DNA from: a virus
Virus record (IMG/VR): IMGVR_UViG_3300020538_000003
Coordinates: 1 to 64,000 of that record
Length of the DNA stretch: 64,000 bases
Reading direction: 5' to 3' (one strand)
Shown: positions 2,699 to 10,975 of the stretch, one piece after another
Position numbering within the stretch: the stretch's first letter is position 1
Layout of the letters: every line of letters starts with the position of its first letter
Program-made: the position numbers and the translations under genes
The notes under the pieces: generated by a model
Seen by the model: only the letters and a program-made list of their open reading frames with translations
The model's database searches: none
Told to the model about the DNA's origin: nothing

Positions 2699-3444
2699 AA
2701 GTATTACTTATAGGAGAAACATGTTTCGATACATTTATTTATGGTAAATGCGAAAGAATTTGCCCAGAAGCACCTATTCCAATTTTTTTACCAATTCATG
2801 AAAAAGTAACCAAGGGAATGGCGGCAAATGTTCTAGAAAACTTAAAGTCATTAGACAAAAAGTATAATAATAAAATTATTTTTGATTTTTGGACCAACAA
2901 ACAAGTTAATAAAAAAATTCGGTATGTTGACGAACAGTCTAATCAAATGATTTTAAGAGTTGATGAAGAACTTATTTATAGTTTTGAAGACAATGAATTA
3001 GATTGCGATATTCAAGATTACGATGCAGTTATTATTTCGGATTACAATAAAGGTTTACTGAGTGAATCTCAACTTATTGAAATTAGTTCCAAAGCAAAAT
3101 TATCATTTATAGATACAAAGAAAAAATATAATTACGAATGGGCTAAATATTTTAATTTTATAAAAATTAATAATAAAGAAGCAAATGAAAATGGGTTTTT
3201 AAATATAAAAGAAATATTTGATAAGATGATTGTTACTGCGGCTAGTGATGGTTGTTATTTTAAGGATAAACATTTTCCAATAAAAAATAAATCAGAAGTA
3301 AGAGATGTGTGTGGTGCTGGTGATACATTTTTAGCGGCATTCGCATATTCTATTATTTTAGGCCAAAACGTAGAAAGTGCTATTGACTTTGCTCAAGATT
3401 CATGTCAAACTGTTATTAGTAAAAGAGGAGTTGTTTCTGTATGA
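2695..3444 (+). CDS. D-glycero-D-manno-heptose-7-phosphate kinase (HldE/RfaE kinase domain, PfkB family)
   Basis: RICPEAPIP, GMAANV, ISDYNKG, DVCGAGDTF. Confidence 0.88.
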   Translation: MKVLLIGETCFDTFIYGKCERICPEAPIPIFLPIHEKVTKGMAANVLENLKSLDKKYNNKIIFDFWTNKQVNKKIRYVDEQSNQMILRVDEELIYSFEDNELDCDIQDYDAVIISDYNKGLLSESQLIEISSKAKLSFIDTKKKYNYEWAKYFNFIKINNKEANENGFLNIKEIFDKMIVTAASDGCYFKDKHFPIKNKSEVRDVCGAGDTFLAAFAYSIILGQNVESAIDFAQDSCQTVISKRGVVSV

Positions 3445-3932
3445 ATCATGAAAAAATTATATCATTAGATGGCTTAAAAAAATATTGGTTCGACTCATAT
3501 GAAAATGTTTTATTTACAAACGGTTGTTTCGACTTATTTCATGCTGGTCATGCTAAAGCGTTAAATGACATAAAAAAAGATTCGCAATCAAATTGTTTTT
3601 TAATTGTTGGGGTTAATAGTGATAAAAGCATAAAAAAGATAAAAGGTGAAAGTAGACCAATAATAAACCAAAATGAAAGAGCTTATGTAGTGGCTTGCCA
3701 TAGAGCTGTAGATATGGTTTTCATATTTGACGAAGAAAACGTTTCATCTTATATTAAGATGATTCGCCCTAATTTTTGGTATAAATCATCAGATTATGAT
3801 ATTAAGTCAATTAACCAAGAAGAAAGGCTAAGTATTGAAGAAGTTAATGGAGAAATTAAATTTATAAATTTGGTTGATGGAATCAGTACAAGTAAAATCA
3901 TTAATAAAATAGGAGGAATTTTCATTGAATAA
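3441..3932 (+). CDS. Heptose-1-phosphate adenylyltransferase (HldE/RfaE C-terminal domain)
   Basis: FTNGCFDLFHAGH, VGVNSDKSIKKIKGESRPI, GISTSKII. Confidence 0.9.
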   Translation: MNHEKIISLDGLKKYWFDSYENVLFTNGCFDLFHAGHAKALNDIKKDSQSNCFLIVGVNSDKSIKKIKGESRPIINQNERAYVVACHRAVDMVFIFDEENVSSYIKMIRPNFWYKSSDYDIKSINQEERLSIEEVNGEIKFINLVDGISTSKIINKIGGIFIE

Positions 3933-4765: not shown

Positions 4766-5494
4766 ATGGGTATGTTCGATTACATAAGAATAGGAACAAC
4801 TCTACCAGAGTTGCCAGATGCGGTTATCTCTCATTGGGGAGATAAAGTAAGTGATATTGCCTTTCAAACGAAAGACACACCAAACCAAGCAATGTCAACC
4901 TATAGGATTGATGGTAATGGTCAATTGTGGTTTAAGAAGGTTGAAGGTCATTGGGAAAAGGGTAAAGAGGTTGCTGAAGACGCACCATTTAGCGAAAAGA
5001 TAGCTGCAATGGGTCACTTTGTGACTGATTCAGAGTGGTATGAGAAAGAATGTTTTAGCGGAAACATTTGCTTCTATGAAAGCTATAGTCATCCAGAATA
5101 TCACGAACTCGATGATCATGCTGGAAATAGCGATGAATGGATGAGATTCGTCCGTGGTTGGATAGAATATTCTGCACTTTTTAAAGACGGTAAGTTAATT
5201 GGTGATATCGAGTTAGTTAAACATGAAGAGCCACAAAAATTAACCGATGAAGAGCTTGCAGAAAGTAAAGCAAGGGTTGCCGCTCAACGCAAAGAAATGG
5301 AAGAGCGGTTCAGAGAGAATCGTAAAAAATATCCTACAGCTGAACAAAAGCTTATTGATAATATTGATAGAGAGACTAAACTTGTTGAAACTATTATGGA
5401 CGAGAGTGATTTTAGTTACGCAATAAGCAATATTAGAATTTTAATTAAAGAATATAGAGAAAAAACAGATACATGGTATGAACGAACTAAATAA
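4766..5494 (+). CDS. Conserved phage hypothetical protein
   Basis: MGMFD...FQTKD N-terminal signature; 242 aa. Confidence 0.75.
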   Translation: MGMFDYIRIGTTLPELPDAVISHWGDKVSDIAFQTKDTPNQAMSTYRIDGNGQLWFKKVEGHWEKGKEVAEDAPFSEKIAAMGHFVTDSEWYEKECFSGNICFYESYSHPEYHELDDHAGNSDEWMRFVRGWIEYSALFKDGKLIGDIELVKHEEPQKLTDEELAESKARVAAQRKEMEERFRENRKKYPTAEQKLIDNIDRETKLVETIMDESDFSYAISNIRILIKEYREKTDTWYERTK

Positions 5495-5681
5495 AGAGCA
5501 ACAAGAAAAACTTGAAATTGCACGACAAGCAGTTATTGAACTTCAAAAACAACAAACTATAATTTACGATAATCTTACAGAAGAAATTGGTGAGGATAAT
5601 GATTGGATTTTTGATTATATCTTCAATTGCGCCGAAGAAAGCGAATACACAAACACAGTTAGAAATCAAATTTTCGAATAG
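5478..5681 (+). CDS. Hypothetical protein
   Basis: ORF in operon. Confidence 0.6.
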   Translation: MNELNKEQQEKLEIARQAVIELQKQQTIIYDNLTEEIGEDNDWIFDYIFNCAEESEYTNTVRNQIFE

Positions 5682-6206
5682 ATGTTTTACAGAAACAAAT
5701 ACGATCAAACTGGCGAGTCTTCTCAAATGGGTGAATCTGCTGAATTACAATTCAAAAAAATAGCTGAAAAACTTGGTAATCAAGTGACAGACGCGACTTT
5801 TAGAGAACAGATTAGCCATATTGATTTTCACATTATCGATAAAAAAGGTGAAAAATATACAGTCGATGTAAAGTCAAGAAAAAAAGTCAAAAGAAAAGAT
5901 AATAATGTTGATGATGAAGTCATTTGGATTGAATTTAAAAATGTTCAAGGAAAAAAAGGATGGCTTTATGGAATGGCAAATTTTATTGCCTTTGAAAGAG
6001 AAGACTCTTTTTTAATGGTCAGTCGTCCTGCACTAGCAGGATTATGTGAAAAAATTGTTGATCTTGAAAAAATTAATGATAATATCAAATATCCTCTTTA
6101 TACAGGATACCAAAGATACGGTAGAAAAGATCTTCTTTCCTTAATTAAGATAGAAGATATTACAAATAATTTAAGTCACACATTTTTTAAAAAGAATGAA
6201 GATTAA
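5682..6206 (+). CDS. PD-(D/E)XK-like nuclease
   Basis: G..AE, IDF, VDVKSRK, WIEFKN..GKKGWLY. Confidence 0.65.
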   Translation: MFYRNKYDQTGESSQMGESAELQFKKIAEKLGNQVTDATFREQISHIDFHIIDKKGEKYTVDVKSRKKVKRKDNNVDDEVIWIEFKNVQGKKGWLYGMANFIAFEREDSFLMVSRPALAGLCEKIVDLEKINDNIKYPLYTGYQRYGRKDLLSLIKIEDITNNLSHTFFKKNED

Positions 6207-6420
6207 CGGTGAGTTAGAAATAAAATTATCTGATGAATCTAAAAAAGAAGTTTTTTACGCTTTAATGTGGGAGAAATTTGGATTCCATAAAGATTATTTT
6301 ATTGAAGGCGCTAGTGTTTATGAAATGAGATCGAATGGGGTTGGACAAGAACCTTACTTTCTCAAAAAAGCTAGTCCGTTGCAAATGTGTATTTTTGAAA
6401 TATTTAAACAATTAAAATGA
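6196..6420 (+). CDS. Hypothetical protein
   Basis: ORF in operon. Confidence 0.6.
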   Translation: MKINGELEIKLSDESKKEVFYALMWEKFGFHKDYFIEGASVYEMRSNGVGQEPYFLKKASPLQMCIFEIFKQLK

Positions 6421-7067
6421 TTAAGGTAGAGTTTATTGATAAAATGGGATCGGATATTTCTGTGGTTAATGCCGCAAGAGTTTCTTTCAATAAGAATTCT
6501 GATTATAATGAAGACGGAAGTTTCAAAGAAGGTGATGAAAAACTTATTGCTTTCTTAGCGAGAGAAAATCATTGGACTCCATTTGGTCACGCTTCACTTT
6601 CTTTTCATATTAAAGCGCCAATCTTTGTTGCTAGACAACTAGTAAAACATACAGTAGGGCTTGTATGGAATGAAGTTAGTCGCCGCTATGTAGATTCAGA
6701 ACCAGAAATCTATTATCCAGATAATTGGCGTAAAAAGAATGAAGATAAAAAACAAGGATCTCATGAAGATCAATTTGTAGATGTATCTTTTGGAGATGAC
6801 TGTAGTATTTATGCAAGTTGTGAAATTGCTGTAGCAACTTATAAAAGTCTTCTCGCCGCTGGTGTTTGCGCCGAACAAGCTAGAATGGTTTTGCCACAGA
6901 GCCTCATGACAGAATGGTATTGGTCTGGATCGCTTTTTGCTTTTGCTCGTGTGTGTAATTTACGCTGCAAGAAAGACACTCAAAAAGAAACTAGAGATGT
7001 CGCAAATGAAATTGATGAAATCGCTAAAGAACATTTTCCTGTTAGTTGGAAATATTTGAGACAATGA
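6417..7067 (+). CDS. thyX: FAD-dependent thymidylate synthase
   Basis: VNAARVSF, HWTPFGH, ARQLVKH...NEVSRRY, EQARMVLP. Confidence 0.95.
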   Translation: MIKVEFIDKMGSDISVVNAARVSFNKNSDYNEDGSFKEGDEKLIAFLARENHWTPFGHASLSFHIKAPIFVARQLVKHTVGLVWNEVSRRYVDSEPEIYYPDNWRKKNEDKKQGSHEDQFVDVSFGDDCSIYASCEIAVATYKSLLAAGVCAEQARMVLPQSLMTEWYWSGSLFAFARVCNLRCKKDTQKETRDVANEIDEIAKEHFPVSWKYLRQ

Positions 7068-7636
7068 ATATTGTAACATCGCAATGTAAAACAACACTTT
7101 TGCTTAATAATGCTTGGCAACCAATCAATGCTATTACAGCAAGAGCAGCATTCTCACATTTGTTGAAGGGTCATATTACTGCGCTCGATAAAAACAATAA
7201 TGTTTTTCATTCTTTAGATAGATGGAATAAAGATGCTGAGTTTTATGAAGATCAACCTGTATTGAGAAGTGCTAAAGGTGTTTGGCCTATTCCAACTGTT
7301 ATCATCGTAACGAGTAAATTTTTTCGTCGCCCAAGGAAAAAGAAATTGACCACCTTGGAGATGGCAAAGATTTATAACTTTACTTGCCAGTATTGTTTAA
7401 ATAAATTTAAAATCGCTGATTTAACAATTGATCACATCAACCCCAAAAGTAAAGGGGGAACTGATGATCATGAAAATAGAACGTTGGCATGTAAACCTTG
7501 CAACACAAGAAAGGCTAGTAAGTTTCCATTTTTTAATGTTAAAAATGAACCAGTTACTGCGCCAGAAATTCCTGCTTTAATGTTAAACACAAGTAAGGTT
7601 AGAGAAGAGTGGGAATATTTTTTAGGTTCTGTGTAA
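7064..7636 (+). CDS. HNH endonuclease (McrA-like)
   Basis: CQYC...LTIDHINPKSKGG...EN...ACKPCNTRK; start likely at the ATGA overlap, 7064. Confidence 0.9.
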   Translation: MNIVTSQCKTTLLLNNAWQPINAITARAAFSHLLKGHITALDKNNNVFHSLDRWNKDAEFYEDQPVLRSAKGVWPIPTVIIVTSKFFRRPRKKKLTTLEMAKIYNFTCQYCLNKFKIADLTIDHINPKSKGGTDDHENRTLACKPCNTRKASKFPFFNVKNEPVTAPEIPALMLNTSKVREEWEYFLGSV

Positions 7637-7643
7637 ATCCATG

Positions 7644-7671
7644 TTGACAAAAACACAAATTTGATTAAAAT
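7644..7671 (+). promoter_or_regulatory. Sigma70-like promoter driving the RNA island
   Basis: TTGACA(7644-7649)-16 bp-TAAAAT(7666-7671). Confidence 0.7.
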
Positions 7672-7764
7672 AAAAATTGAGGGTAGTAAACACCAGAAGT
7701 TACTAAGGTCCGAAAGGGAGATTGGGTTGAGATAAACCTACTAATTAGAAAGTTTTATATACTT

Positions 7765-7877
7765 TGCCTTTAGAGGGGTTAAAGGGCTTCATGCCCTGTA
7801 CTATAATGTAGATGACATGCAGGACTGCGTATGCGGGTGCGTATGGGAATATATTATAGTCGCCTCTCTAACAGGCA
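7765..7877 (+). ncRNA. Unassigned structured RNA (113-nt rod with side hairpin)
   Basis: TGCC/GGCA closing stem; 7770-7778/7863-7871; hairpin 7784-7796; 7800-7810/7850-7860 (with G-U pairs). Confidence 0.6.
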
Positions 7878-7889
7878 TCAATTTTCAAT

Positions 7890-7966
7890 CGCGGGGCAGT
7901 CAGTAGTGGTGCTGAACTAGTCTCATAAGCTAGGATTCGCTGTGAGTTCGACTCTCACCTCCGCAA
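7890..7966 (+). tRNA. tRNA-Met(CAT), initiator-like
   Basis: CGCGGGG/CTCCGCA with C1xA72 mismatch; CTCATAA loop; GTTCGACT T-loop; no encoded CCA. Confidence 0.85.
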
Positions 7967-7973
7967 TTTTTAT

Positions 7974-8059
7974 GGGTAGATACCCAAGTGGCTAAAGGGG
8001 GCAGACTGTAAATCTGCTGATGTATGTCTACGTTGGTTCGAATCCAACTCTGCCCACCA
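7974..8059 (+). tRNA. tRNA-Tyr(GTA)
   Basis: GGGTAGA/TCTGCCC, CTGTAAA loop, long variable arm, CCA. Confidence 0.95.
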
Positions 8060-8064
8060 TTTTC

Positions 8065-8138
8065 GCGGGATTTGTATAATGGCAATACGCCATCCTTCCA
8101 AGTTGGAGTCATCAGTTCGATTCTGATATCCCGCACCA
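8065..8138 (+). tRNA. tRNA-Gly(TCC)
   Basis: GCGGGAT/ATCCCGC, CTTCCAA loop, CCA. Confidence 0.92.
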
Positions 8139-8140
8139 AT

Positions 8141-8333
8141 TTTTCCCTGCCATTGTGGGCGATGATCCTACAATGAGCATTAAGGCTAAAGGCGGGTTAG
8201 CAACCCGATGATGCTAAATGTAATCCGACATAAATTAAAGTAGGCTTGGAGTCGCTACCAAGATGAAATAGTCACTGTGTTTCTTCAAATTGGTCAAAGC
8301 TCCGCTTGGCTAATTAATCGGTAGTGGGGAAAA
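8141..8333 (+). ncRNA. Unassigned multibranch structured RNA (about 193 nt)
   Basis: Closing stem TTTTCCCT/GGGGAAAA plus hairpins 8151-8175, 8176-8215 (inner 8193-8207), 8245-8262 and 8288-8315. Confidence 0.65.
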
Positions 8334-8338
8334 TACTT

Positions 8339-8409
8339 TGCGAGAGGGATCATGCGGAGATCGCTAGGCCCATAGTCTAGAGTGGAGGTTAAATTCCCTC
8401 CCCTCGCAA
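8339..8409 (+). tRNA. Degenerate tRNA-like gene, anticodon CAT
   Basis: TGCGAG/CTCGCA acceptor, GATC/GATC D-stem, CTAGG/TCTAG stem with loop CCCATAG, atypical T-loop TTAAATTC. Confidence 0.6.
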
Positions 8410-8410
8410 T

Positions 8411-8505
8411 TCGTATTCATACGCGATCAAAGTATGACGTTGCTAGGAGCGGTTCCCTAGATAGTCACAGCCCTTGATGAGTCGTAGGCCGAAATGCTAT
8501 GGGCA
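8411..8505 (+). ncRNA. Structured element with an imperfect hammerhead-like core
   Basis: Hairpins 8417-8437 and 8443-8460; GCCC-TTGATGA-stem-GAAA...GGGC at 8470-8504. Confidence 0.3.
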
Positions 8506-8521
8506 AATCATTTTCTATGTT

Positions 8522-8659
8522 TTTCTATTGTGGTCTTTATCGCCCGAAGTATGTTGGGAAAGCAGATTGGAAATCTCCGACGAGCCTCTACTAGCAGAAA
8601 AGTGACAGAAGGATAAACGAGTGGTGTCTTTAAGACCAAAGCTTCTTCAGCAATAGAAA
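8522..8659 (+). ncRNA. Unassigned structured RNA (about 138 nt)
   Basis: TTTCTATTG/CAATAGAAA and TGGTCTT/AAGACCA nested stems, with internal hairpins. Confidence 0.55.
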
Positions 8660-8670
8660 GTATTTTTAAC

Positions 8671-8692
8671 TCCAAAGTAGCTCAGTTAGTAG
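8671..8692 (+). pseudogene. 5' remnant of a tRNA gene (Asn-like start)
   Basis: TCCAAAGTAGCTCAGTTAGTAG is an acceptor 5' strand plus D-arm start; it is cut off by the antisense HNH gene. Confidence 0.55.
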
Positions 8693-9230
8693 TATTTAAA
8701 TTTATTAATTTAAGTCTTTTTCTAATAGATGTTTCAGAAACATTTAAAATTTTTGAAATTTTTATATTTGATAAATTTTGTTTCTTTAATTCAAGAAGAT
8801 CTTCATCTGTGAATTTTCTTTTGTTGTTATTATAACAAAGTGTGCAATAATTTGCGCTTGGATCTTTTTGATTACCACAAACACATTTTCTTTTATTAGT
8901 TATTATTAATTTTTGCTCTTTTAAAAAATCATCATTAAATTGATAAAAATTTGTTGGTAAATCAACATAATTATTATGCACTTCTCTATGACAATTTGCA
9001 CAAAGCAAAATACATTTTTTCAATTCTGGTACGACAACATTATCCCAACTTTTTGGATTTGCGCGAATATTTGCTAATCCAATATCTTTTTTAGATGGAT
9101 CTAAATGATGAAATTCTAAAGATGCATTGCATTTGTTGTAACCGCAAATCTGACAACATCCACCCATACACTTAATCATTTTATCTTTATTATTTTTTCT
9201 CCACTCTTTTACTTTTTCTTTACTCATCAT
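8682..9230 (-). CDS. HNH homing endonuclease with C-terminal HTH
   Basis: GGCCQICGYNKC..SLEFHHLDP..K...KCILLCANCHREVH; C-terminal SNIKISKILNVSETSIRKRL. Confidence 0.88.
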   Translation of the reverse strand: MMSKEKVKEWRKNNKDKMIKCMGGCCQICGYNKCNASLEFHHLDPSKKDIGLANIRANPKSWDNVVVPELKKCILLCANCHREVHNNYVDLPTNFYQFNDDFLKEQKLIITNKRKCVCGNQKDPSANYCTLCYNNNKRKFTDEDLLELKKQNLSNIKISKILNVSETSIRKRLKLINLNTTN

Positions 9231-9628: not shown

Positions 9629-10975
9629 TTATCTACTTACTTCTTCCCAATCCATTGAGGCGAGAACTTTTGCAGGATTTCCTCCTGTTGCGGTTCCAGC
9701 AGAAATAGCTAATGTTAATTCTTGAGCAGCACCAGTTAAACCATTTCTTTCTAATTGGAATTTGAAAAGAGCTTCTTTTAAGATGTCGAGAGTTGCACTT
9801 GCTTGATTTGTTTGGCTAATAAATCCTGCGGCAAGTATTCTACCACCAGAAATGGTTGTGGCATCTTTTTTATATTCTACAGCAGAATTTGCTCCAGCAG
9901 AAATCCAGTCTCCACTTCCACCACTTGTTGTCCCGTTTGCAATTATTTTCCATTTAAAATTACCAGTTGTTGTTGGTAAAATAGAAAGCGCAGTAAGAAT
10001 TACTATTGCGTCTAATCTTGTTGACTTTAATTTAATAGTAATTACTGGGTAGTCAGTATTTACCGTTGTTATTAACTCGTAAGGGGCATTGACATCTTGA
10101 CTTACTGCTTGTTGTAATCCTCTCAATTCATATCCACCTTCCGAAATAACAGAAGAACAAATTTGTTTTAATGTGCTGCTGTCAGTAGTTGCGGCAGTAT
10201 TTGCTATTTCATATCTCAGCGGCAAAGAAGCTGTAGTAATATAAGTAGAAGTAATAATATTAGCGTGATGAAAAGTATGACAAAGAATAAATTGTCCATT
10301 AATAACAAACCCCATTCTTACTGAACCTAATCCCAACCATTCAATATCCATCCACAAAATTTGGGCTTTAGTGATATCTAAAGTAAAACCAGAAGCGCCA
10401 GTTCCATCTAGCTTGTCCCCATTCCAATTTGCTTTAGATACTCTTATTTCTGTAGCAGGAGATCCATTGACCAAAGAACGTTCAACAAAACTTAAAGTAG
10501 AACCATCGAGTTCTAAATACATTCCATTATCAGCGCCAAAATAACCCACTCTTTGTCTTAAACCAGTTTTTGCTGGTGACATTACAAAAGTATTTAAGGT
10601 TAATAATGATTTTCCTGGTTGATAAGCAAAAACTTTCGTTGTTTCTCTAGTAACGAATGAACCAGAAGCGTTTGTTACAGTCAAATCAACCAATCCTTGA
10701 TTTTGATTAAAAGAACCACTACCACTAACACCACTAGCAGTAGACCAAAGACCATTGTCAGCATACCTATGACTTGAATCAAATAAAGTCAATGGAGAAG
10801 AAATTCTCATGCGACCAAACGCATCAAAAGCAGTAGAACTAGCAGAATTGGCAAAACTTAAATCGCTTTGCTCTAAGGGTCTGTACACATCGTTTGCGCG
10901 ATCATATATACAAGGAATTTGTCCTGCTGTATGCGACAATTGACCAAGATTTTGGAAAGTATAGAGATCTGCCAT
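9629..10975 (-). CDS. Probable virion-associated protein inserted antisense in the tRNA array
   Basis: 448 aa, beta-rich, DAFGRMRIS and DIEWLGLG motifs; preceded by the GTGTAA motif. Confidence 0.7.
   Translation of the reverse strand: MADLYTFQNLGQLSHTAGQIPCIYDRANDVYRPLEQSDLSFANSASSTAFDAFGRMRISSPLTLFDSSHRYADNGLWSTASGVSGSGSFNQNQGLVDLTVTNASGSFVTRETTKVFAYQPGKSLLTLNTFVMSPAKTGLRQRVGYFGADNGMYLELDGSTLSFVERSLVNGSPATEIRVSKANWNGDKLDGTGASGFTLDITKAQILWMDIEWLGLGSVRMGFVINGQFILCHTFHHANIITSTYITTASLPLRYEIANTAATTDSSTLKQICSSVISEGGYELRGLQQAVSQDVNAPYELITTVNTDYPVITIKLKSTRLDAIVILTALSILPTTTGNFKWKIIANGTTSGGSGDWISAGANSAVEYKKDATTISGGRILAAGFISQTNQASATLDILKEALFKFQLERNGLTGAAQELTLAISAGTATGGNPAKVLASMDWEEVSR

Follow-up and report, generated by a model that had tools for sequence, protein, structure and literature searches.

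The stretch at 8141–8333 on the plus strand of the window (the whole 64,000 nt of viral DNA analysed here) is almost certainly a genuine structured RNA gene. Our best overall explanation, held with moderate confidence, is that 8145–8330 (+) is the gene for a member of an undescribed family of compact noncoding RNAs found in the tRNA operons of freshwater T4-like myoviruses; that the RNA binds a protein is a more tentative guess. Non-tRNA RNAs in phage tRNA clusters are a known kind of element; this family, its fold and its distribution appear to be undescribed. An initial annotation had suggested a new class of noncoding RNA at this site, and the suggestion has held up: no Rfam 15 family matches, deposited phage records show nothing beyond tRNAs, and homologues with extensive compensatory change occur in many independent phage contigs.

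Genomic setting

The window is AT-rich phage DNA with a G+C content of 30.8%. A promoter-like site is followed by an ORF-free stretch of about 1 kb with 45% G+C, the non-coding block at 7680–8660. The block contains, in order, a leader, tRNA-Met, -Tyr and -Gly (7889–8138), the candidate RNA (8141–8333), a weak tRNA-like element (8340–8408) and a structured tail. The features of the block and its surroundings are as follows.

6417–7067, coding: ThyX gene
7046–7636, plus strand: HNH endonuclease gene
7644–7671, plus strand: sigma-70-like promoter (TTGACA, 16 nt, TAAAAT), matching the consensus at 11 of 12 positions and identified by consensus match only
8065–8138, plus strand: tRNA-Gly(UCC) with encoded CCA, the upstream neighbour (60.6 bits)
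8139–8144, plus strand: spacer AUUUUU between the CCA end and helix P1, with a conserved U-run
8340–8408, plus strand: weak tRNA-like element with a CAU anticodon, the downstream neighbour (Rfam tRNA, 22.5 bits)
8682–9230, minus strand: HNH endonuclease gene
9629–10975, minus strand: virion structural protein, approximately 65% identical to that of T4-like cyanomyoviruses (Kyanoviridae)

The candidate had been described as GC-rich and devoid of a plausible ORF. Its G+C content is indeed 43%, against 30.8% for the whole window, and no ORF of at least 40 aa lies inside it on either strand. The sole ORF that runs into it (8024–8176, plus strand) starts inside tRNA-Tyr, and a minus-strand ORF at 7930–8139 stops just short. 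The RNA is also delimited like a gene within the operon, as had been proposed, with tRNA-Gly ending at 8138 and the tRNA-like element starting at 8340. U-rich spacers like that at 8139–8144 separate ordinary tRNAs of the same array as well. The promoter-like site at 7644–7671 is the nearest strong one upstream of the RNA on the plus strand, and a 9/12 match lies inside the RNA itself.

Several observations concern the array as a whole. HNH genes border the RNA block, and the downstream one is missing in the relative L001, where tRNA-Asn, -Thr and -Pro follow directly; this fits insertion of the homing type into the array. A hairpin-rich insert of 133 nt in the operon leader (7747–7879) is missing from the 98%-identical L001 and is skipped in one contig from an RNA library (joint 7757 to 7970). 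The same GGGCUUCAUGCCC hairpin occurs in this insert and in a different insert of L001 (5299–5390). Between its tRNA-Gly and the RNA, L001 carries a 760-nt insertion (5299–6058) that has its own promoter-like site and a 177-aa ORF (5421–5954) and ends in CCCGCUCACCAA, which resembles the 3′ end of a tRNA. Inserts of similar size occur in L123, L101 and L100.

Other structured units recur in these arrays. At 8440–8500, a conserved module (AGCCCUUGAUGAG...GCUAUGGGCAAAU, then a U-run) is found independently of the candidate RNA in many related tRNA arrays, including L087 (11500–11550), L153, L152, L183, L150 and L118. In sequence it is reminiscent of a hammerhead core (CUGAUGAG...CGAAA) or of a leaky terminator, and no Rfam model matches it. 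A separate RNA unit of approximately 100 nt, absent from the window, lies between tRNA-Gly and the candidate-family RNA in L118 (~3350–3450) and also in L110, L099, L097 and L184. An acceptor-like stem is present and the CCA is encoded (GGGGUGAAGC...CCCCACCA); the unit looks like another conserved non-tRNA family.

Secondary structure

Members of the family range from 155 to 190 nt and follow two architectures: type A, which includes the window copy and occurs with or without helix P6, and type B, in which the P5 domain is remodelled. With 8139 counted as position 1, the helices are P1 (7–12/186–191), P2 (13–37), P3 (39–83), P4 (87–90/180–183), P4b (91–94/138–141), P5 (107–124) and P6 (150–177). 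We place the RNA on the plus strand, the same as the tRNAs, because it has many conserved G-U pairs. Its parts are listed below in window coordinates.

8145–8150, plus strand: P1 5′ strand, CCCUGC; pairs with 8324–8329 in 100% of alignment cells, with exchanges of C-G to G-C and A-U in type B
8151–8175, plus strand: P2 hairpin of 9 bp with a variable loop; double compensatory changes in 8 of 9 pairs
8177–8221, plus strand: P3 arm with three helical segments, a purine-rich internal loop (UAAAGG/AUGAU) and the 7-nt loop L3
8198–8201, plus strand: UAGC, the L3 half of the kissing loop; pairs with 8254–8257
8222–8232, plus strand: junction and 5′ strands of P4 and P4b (AAU CCGA CAUA); GUAAUCCGAC is conserved in 17 clusters
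8233–8244, plus strand: 5′ side of the large internal loop, AAUUAAAGUAGG; conserved in type A
8245–8262, plus strand: P5 hairpin with loop L5; 4–5 of 5 pairs covary, and GCUA at 8254–8257 is the other kissing half
8263–8279, plus strand: 3′ side of the internal loop, AUGAAAUAGUCAC, and P4b 3′ strand UGUG; conserved
8288–8315, plus strand: P6, an optional variable hairpin with three length variants and compensatory changes
8318–8330, plus strand: 3′ segment UCGG UA GUGGGG A, comprising the P4 3′ strand, a 2-nt linker, the P1 3′ strand and an unpaired A

The terminal helix P1 has 6–7 bp across the family and is followed by the unpaired A. The initial annotation had described paired ends, and they do pair as described, but only CCCUGC (8145–8150) with GUGGGG (8324–8329) is conserved; the UUUU/AAAA extension is specific to the subgroup of the window copy. 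Five helices are enclosed by P1 (P2, P3, P4/P4b, P5 and P6), where at least four hairpins had been predicted. Extending from a four-way junction are hairpin P2, the P3 arm, which is bent, and a composite arm made up of P4, P4b and P5. In P3, whose segment lengths vary between subtypes, all pairs show double compensatory changes except a conserved G-U at the base (alignments A6 and A7, described below). P4 is invariant, and P4b has two covarying pairs. A GACAUA/UGUGUU helix obtained in the first RNAalifold run was dropped for P4 plus P4b, which we prefer because the combination is compatible with all subtypes. P6 is absent from 15 of 32 aligned sequences, namely the short type A forms (e.g., L006, L087, L091, L153 and L190) and all of type B. 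Type B also has an extra helix plus UAAGG in place of the AAUUAAAGUAGG side of the internal loop.

All near-invariant letters (GCC, AUGAGC, GUAAUCCGAC and UCGGUAGUG) lie at the four-way junction and P4. The last of these, UCGGUAGUG, is identical in all members, while the 5′ partner strand of P1 varies with pairing kept. A constant 3′ strand with a changing partner points to a sequence-specific role of the P1 3′ strand beyond pairing. By eye, neither the K-turn, the 11-nt receptor nor the sarcin-ricin motif (AGUA/GAA) fits the internal loops of all members; several have ACUA where the sarcin-ricin motif needs AGUA.

Covariation and a loop–loop contact

The fold is upheld by three alignments, compared in each case with the pairing obtained when partners are slid. 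In A5, a MAFFT alignment blind to structure, 95.5% of cells are paired against 30–44% for slid partners, and 28 of 56 pairs show double changes. The two model-fitted alignments give 96.6% against 32–45% with double changes in 33 pairs (A6, 20 sequences), and 94.9% against 31–41% with double changes in 32 pairs (A7, 32 sequences). For both A6 and A7, none of 500 shuffles reaches the observed values. Dozens of compensatory changes over 17 clusters, together with an invariant junction, indicate purifying selection on the fold. The candidate itself has a minimum free energy of −59.8 kcal/mol (z = −3.08), and one in 200 dinucleotide shuffles folds as well.

Loops L3 and L5 form a further pairing that lies outside every covariance model. 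It holds in 96–97% of cells in A5 and A6, comprises 4–6 bp, and is represented in the family by at least eight different complementary loop pairs. Written as L3/L5, these are UAGC/GCUA, UGGC/GCCA, UCGC/GCGA, GUCGCU/AGCGAC, UCACGA/UCGUGG, GGCGA/UCGCC, GGUCA/UGACC and AGCCA/UGGCU. Complementarity of L3 to the L5 of the same RNA averages 4.38, compared with 3.11 for shuffled loops, and none of 2000 shuffles is as high. The subgroup of L005, L185 and L163 has no obvious L3–L5 complement. For an alternative L2–L5 pseudoknot the corresponding values are 3.19 and 2.83, with 4.7% of shuffles as high.

Relatives and distribution

Homologues in viral metagenomes, which the initial annotation had proposed to look for by nhmmer and similar searches, were found, and they covary as set out above. 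Approximately 55 copies are present in contigs of uncultivated freshwater phages and lake metagenomes (~33 IMG/VR contigs and 23 metagenome contigs) and fall into 17 clusters below 90% identity. Three approaches yielded the first four: nhmmer, a search for an exact 31-mer, and a scan of the surroundings of structural-protein homologues. More were picked up by pattern scans on two invariant segments (TCCGAC ... TCGGTAGTG), filtered with the covariance models R1 and R2. The RNA is present at one copy per genome: a single copy occurs in each of the three large phage records, of which one is 97% complete. DNA carrying the stretch of the window comes from lake and freshwater metagenomes of at least 11 studies.

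Elsewhere, searches gave no further members. In blastn of 7600–8700 against 50,697 deposited phage records, only tRNAs matched. Two pattern scans of 185,579 prokaryote genomes returned 0 and 8 matches, with patterns strict enough to miss diverged copies, and the eight fail model R2 and are ascribed to chance. There is no copy in the cultured T4-like phages S-RIM12, S-CRM01, S-WAM2, S-H9-1 and T4, a 15-bit match in S-CRM01 lying inside the gp5 baseplate gene and so counting as chance. The nearest record (G001) also yields no copy, but at 58% completeness this absence carries no weight.

The carriers belong to the T4-like lineage. One relative (G002; 173.8 kb, 97% complete) has structural proteins nearest to those of Kyanoviridae cyanophages, and psbA (PF00124) was not found in it. 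The T4-like carriers may infect freshwater hosts other than cyanobacteria.

The family occupies a consistent place in the arrays. At all loci but one, a CCA-ended tRNA or tRNA-like RNA lies directly upstream, and the RNA starts 6 nt after the CCA; in the exception (L164) no tRNA precedes it and the RNA is the first unit after a coding region. Five upstream partners occur: tRNA-Gly(UCC), which is the commonest, tRNA-Trp, tRNA-Lys, a Gly-like tRNA and the ~100-nt CCA-ended RNA. In the short forms (155–165 nt, compared with ~185 nt for the window form), the next tRNA (Cys, His or Pro) begins approximately 8–11 nt after P1, and ordinary tRNA spacers here measure 5–6 nt. TRNA-like spacers on both sides imply that the RNA occupies a tRNA slot. 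Almost every long-form copy examined (L118, L099, L097, L184 and L164) has the CAU tRNA-like element after the RNA, and in L110 it comes only beyond an insert of ~83 nt. This element is degenerate with a poor T-arm, and scores 29.4 bits in L001. The surrounding protein genes include no conserved one that would suggest a partner of the RNA.

Comparison with known RNA families

The Rfam comparison that had been proposed as a check gave no match, so the outcome of a known family did not arise. Among the 4227 models of Rfam 15, nothing reached the gathering score, or even E<=10, on either 2 kb or 205 nt (8136–8340, both strands), and a search of the 64-kb window placed no family over the candidate. 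The initial annotation had recognised no RNase P, 6S, tmRNA or group I/II core, in agreement with ARAGORN and Rfam. We found no description of the family in the literature, a comparison that leaves aside the unnamed candidates of a survey of 10,006 candidate viral RNAs (PMC10690425).

Individual look-alikes were rejected on the following grounds. For a tRNA, ARAGORN and RF00005 are silent within 8141–8333 and there is no T-loop of the GTTCRA type. For a group I intron, RF00028 is absent, the flanking units are complete and the ends of the RNA pair together; the letters AUAGUC alone recall the group I J8/7-P7 element. RNase P RNA is marked by the P4 pseudoknot and the CR-I/CR-V consensus (..GAAAGUCC.. 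/ ..ACAGAA..GGCUUA), whereas the candidate's P4 (CCGA/UCGG) is nested, it has no ACAGAA, and no model matches. Neither tmRNA, 6S nor SRP RNA has a covariance-model match, and ARAGORN reports no tmRNA. Y RNA and YrlA have no Rfam match, and the TROVE/Ro60 gene is absent from G002–G004 in a search that detected it in control genomes. GOLLD and ROOL match neither through RF01998 nor RF03087, and measure 500–800+ nt compared with 155–190 nt. Homology to T4 RNA C and D was sought in T4 68500–74500 using model R2 without filters, which gave no significant match; the best score (7.3 bits) fell elsewhere in that stretch. No Rfam model for self-cleaving ribozymes (hammerhead, hairpin, twister-sister, HDV-like and others) matches, a result that speaks to the known classes and leaves a new one as a minor possibility.

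A copy of the GTPase-associated centre of 23S rRNA would have a self-closed top of H42 and a three-way junction with H43 and H44, with the conserved loops 1065–1073 and 1093–1098. In the P5 domain (8233–8275), AUUAAAG and GAAAUAGUCACUG resemble E. coli 23S 1080–1107 in order and sequence when compared by eye with a verified 58-mer. The domain closed by P4b has one hairpin rather than the H43/H44 junction, and no LSU model matches; the 23S-like letters are limited to type A. Likenesses in letters to 5S rRNA and human Y4 (GGUAGUG...) and to the SRP Alu domain (UGUAAUCC) are attributed to chance, as those letters pair differently there and no model matches. The candidate's GGUAGUGGG also occurs in human Y4 RNA, presumably a chance-level match.

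Several known systems resemble the family in part. The stable T4 RNAs C and D have no assigned role (PMC3014915, PMC9697503). These species 1 and 2 RNAs of 119–139 nt directly follow tRNA-Arg in the T4 tRNA cluster and lie head to tail with the tRNAs, 1–6 nt apart, which is the same genomic logic as here. The candidate is larger, has a four-way junction and a kissing loop, and lacks the canonical T-arm sequence of RNA C, so that context alone is common to them, with no homology. GOLLD and ROOL (RF01998, RF03087) are phage and prophage RNAs, often near tRNA islands, with pseudoknots and kissing loops that form nanocages (PMC12286853). They are 3–4 times longer, and their kissing loops are intermolecular, whereas the L3–L5 contact of the candidate may be intra- or intermolecular. 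manA (RF01745), an RNA of less than 200 nt in T4-like aquatic phages, has covarying loop–loop pairs and multi-stem junctions, and RNAs below 200 nt, including the cyanophage manA, form 60-mers through intermolecular kissing loops (bioRxiv 10.64898/2026.07.01.735769). It resides in the 5′ UTRs of protein genes (in cyanophages and Photobacterium), in contrast to the tRNA slot of the candidate, which has no Rfam match to it. Bacterial Y RNAs and YrlA, partners of Ro60 (Rsr), are similar in having paired 5′ and 3′ ends and a tRNA-like module and in occurring in phages among tRNAs; unlike them, the candidate has no T-loop. The natural four-way-junction form of the hairpin ribozyme is a likeness of architecture only, with a conserved internal loop on each of two adjacent arms. 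In the hairpin-ribozyme design, two internal loops on adjacent arms of the four-way junction dock. The arms of the candidate are far longer, a kissing loop clamps them, and RF00173 is not matched.

Possible expression and release, and a proposed mechanism

Four freshwater metatranscriptome runs (three studies) contain contigs that span 8140–8347 at 88–99% identity, and one of these contigs is 190 nt long with 2 mismatches. This coverage is weakly consistent with expression of the RNA; assembled contigs are also compatible with DNA carry-over, and termini cannot be read from them. The protein-coding flanks at 7600–7673 and 8525–8700 have no cover in the same four runs, which is not evidence of transcript ends.

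Excision of the RNA by tRNA processing is probable, and the product is most likely a stable, trans-acting RNA cut out along with the tRNAs. In the mechanism we propose, the candidate would be co-transcribed with the tRNAs from the promoter at 7644–7671. RNase P cleavage would free the 5′ end of the following tRNA and might also occur at the acceptor-like P1, although the lack of a CCA, T-loop, D-loop or tRNA model score makes recognition of P1 itself conjecture. Trimming by 3′ exonucleases would bring the precursor back to P1, and a stable RNA of ~185 nt (155–165 nt in the short forms) would accumulate. If P1 stacks on P4 and P2 stacks on P3, the long arms could lie side by side, their tips clamped by the L3–L5 kiss. 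This would leave the invariant junction, together with the pair of conserved internal loops, exposed as a working surface, which may bind a protein of translation or tRNA metabolism in trans, as a scaffold or decoy.

Alternative explanations

Whether the RNA acts as a protein-binding scaffold or decoy, rather than as a ribozyme or a self-assembling RNA, is a tentative assignment that falls short of probable. The two alternatives it is set against, an active ribozyme or ligand-binding RNA and a short RNA that self-assembles through intermolecular L3–L5 pairing, are together unlikely. Self-assembly would join individual copies in RNA-only particles shaped as rings or cages, as known for ROOL, GOLLD and manA, and we regard it as rather improbable. 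Covariation cannot separate pairing within a molecule from pairing between molecules, and precedents exist in the ROOL and GOLLD nanocages (PMC12286853) and the manA 60-mers (bioRxiv 10.64898/2026.07.01.735769). However, arms of like length that are adjacent on a four-way junction make an intramolecular kiss geometrically simple, the candidate has a single complementary loop pair where the known cages use several interfaces, and it has no homology to any of the three. In the catalytic or ligand-binding reading, the junction and the L3–L5 clamp would bring the internal loops together as an active site or a binding pocket, which might serve, for instance, in cleaving the polycistronic tRNA precursor. 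The concentration of invariant letters at the junction and internal loops, among helices that covary freely, suits this idea, as do a size and complexity typical of ribozymes and riboswitch aptamers and a position within a transcript that must be cut; and a layout of two conserved internal loops on adjacent arms of a four-way junction, as in the hairpin ribozyme, suits a catalytic or ligand-binding RNA no less than a scaffold or decoy. It is nevertheless a doubtful prospect. Even at E<=10, none of the known ribozyme or riboswitch models is matched. The P5-domain loop is remodelled from type A to type B, as is unusual in an active site; processing arrays of this sort needs nothing beyond the RNase P and exonucleases of the cell; and the RNA is followed by no expression platform.

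Mimicry of a translation RNA, either as a tRNA-shaped decoy for host nucleases that target tRNAs or as a copy of an rRNA site (uL11/GTPase-associated centre), is no less doubtful. P1 with its unpaired A resembles an acceptor stem with a discriminator, most members have U as the second nucleotide of the 7-nt loop L3, and AUUAAAG and GAAAUAGUCACUG are like the 23S segment. Against this, L3 is taken up by the kiss, the features that mark a tRNA (T-loop, D-loop, CCA and model score) are lacking, and the P5 domain has one hairpin in place of the H43/H44 three-way junction; type B lacks the 23S-like letters, and the LSU rRNA models of Rfam give no local match. The RNA might, lastly, be functionless, as a decayed tRNA, a remnant of an intron or mobile element, or a structured spacer. 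Such an origin could be read from the mosaic region, in which the block lies between HNH endonuclease genes and relatives have indels and an inserted ORF beside the RNA. It is hardly credible in view of the compensatory changes over 17 clusters with an invariant junction, the maintenance of the RNA as a single-copy unit behind different neighbours, the silence of the group I/II intron models and the intact flanking tRNAs. Judged from the sequences, a functionless RNA appears essentially excluded by covariation, and this reading can be considered largely refuted. The 17 clusters below 90% identity also contradict the idea that the alignment merely gathers recent copies of one sequence.

Significance

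Few RNAs of 150–200 nt have maintained over evolution a multi-helix junction together with conserved internal loops and a distant loop–loop pairing. Those that have done so proved to be ribozymes, riboswitches, scaffolds for proteins or, lately, self-assembling RNA cages. The present family is a well-defined and easily synthesised addition to the few enigmatic RNAs of phage tRNA operons, among them GOLLD, ROOL and T4 RNA C and D (for which 50 years have brought no explanation), and as a candidate family it belongs to the T4-like lineage itself. Its alignment and structure suffice for an Rfam-grade model and for the design of experiments by probing, cleavage, oligomerisation and pull-down. Neighbouring arrays contain several other conserved non-tRNA modules, and phage tRNA islands may therefore be general cassettes of RNA genes; these cassettes may use the tRNA-processing enzymes of the host as their release system.
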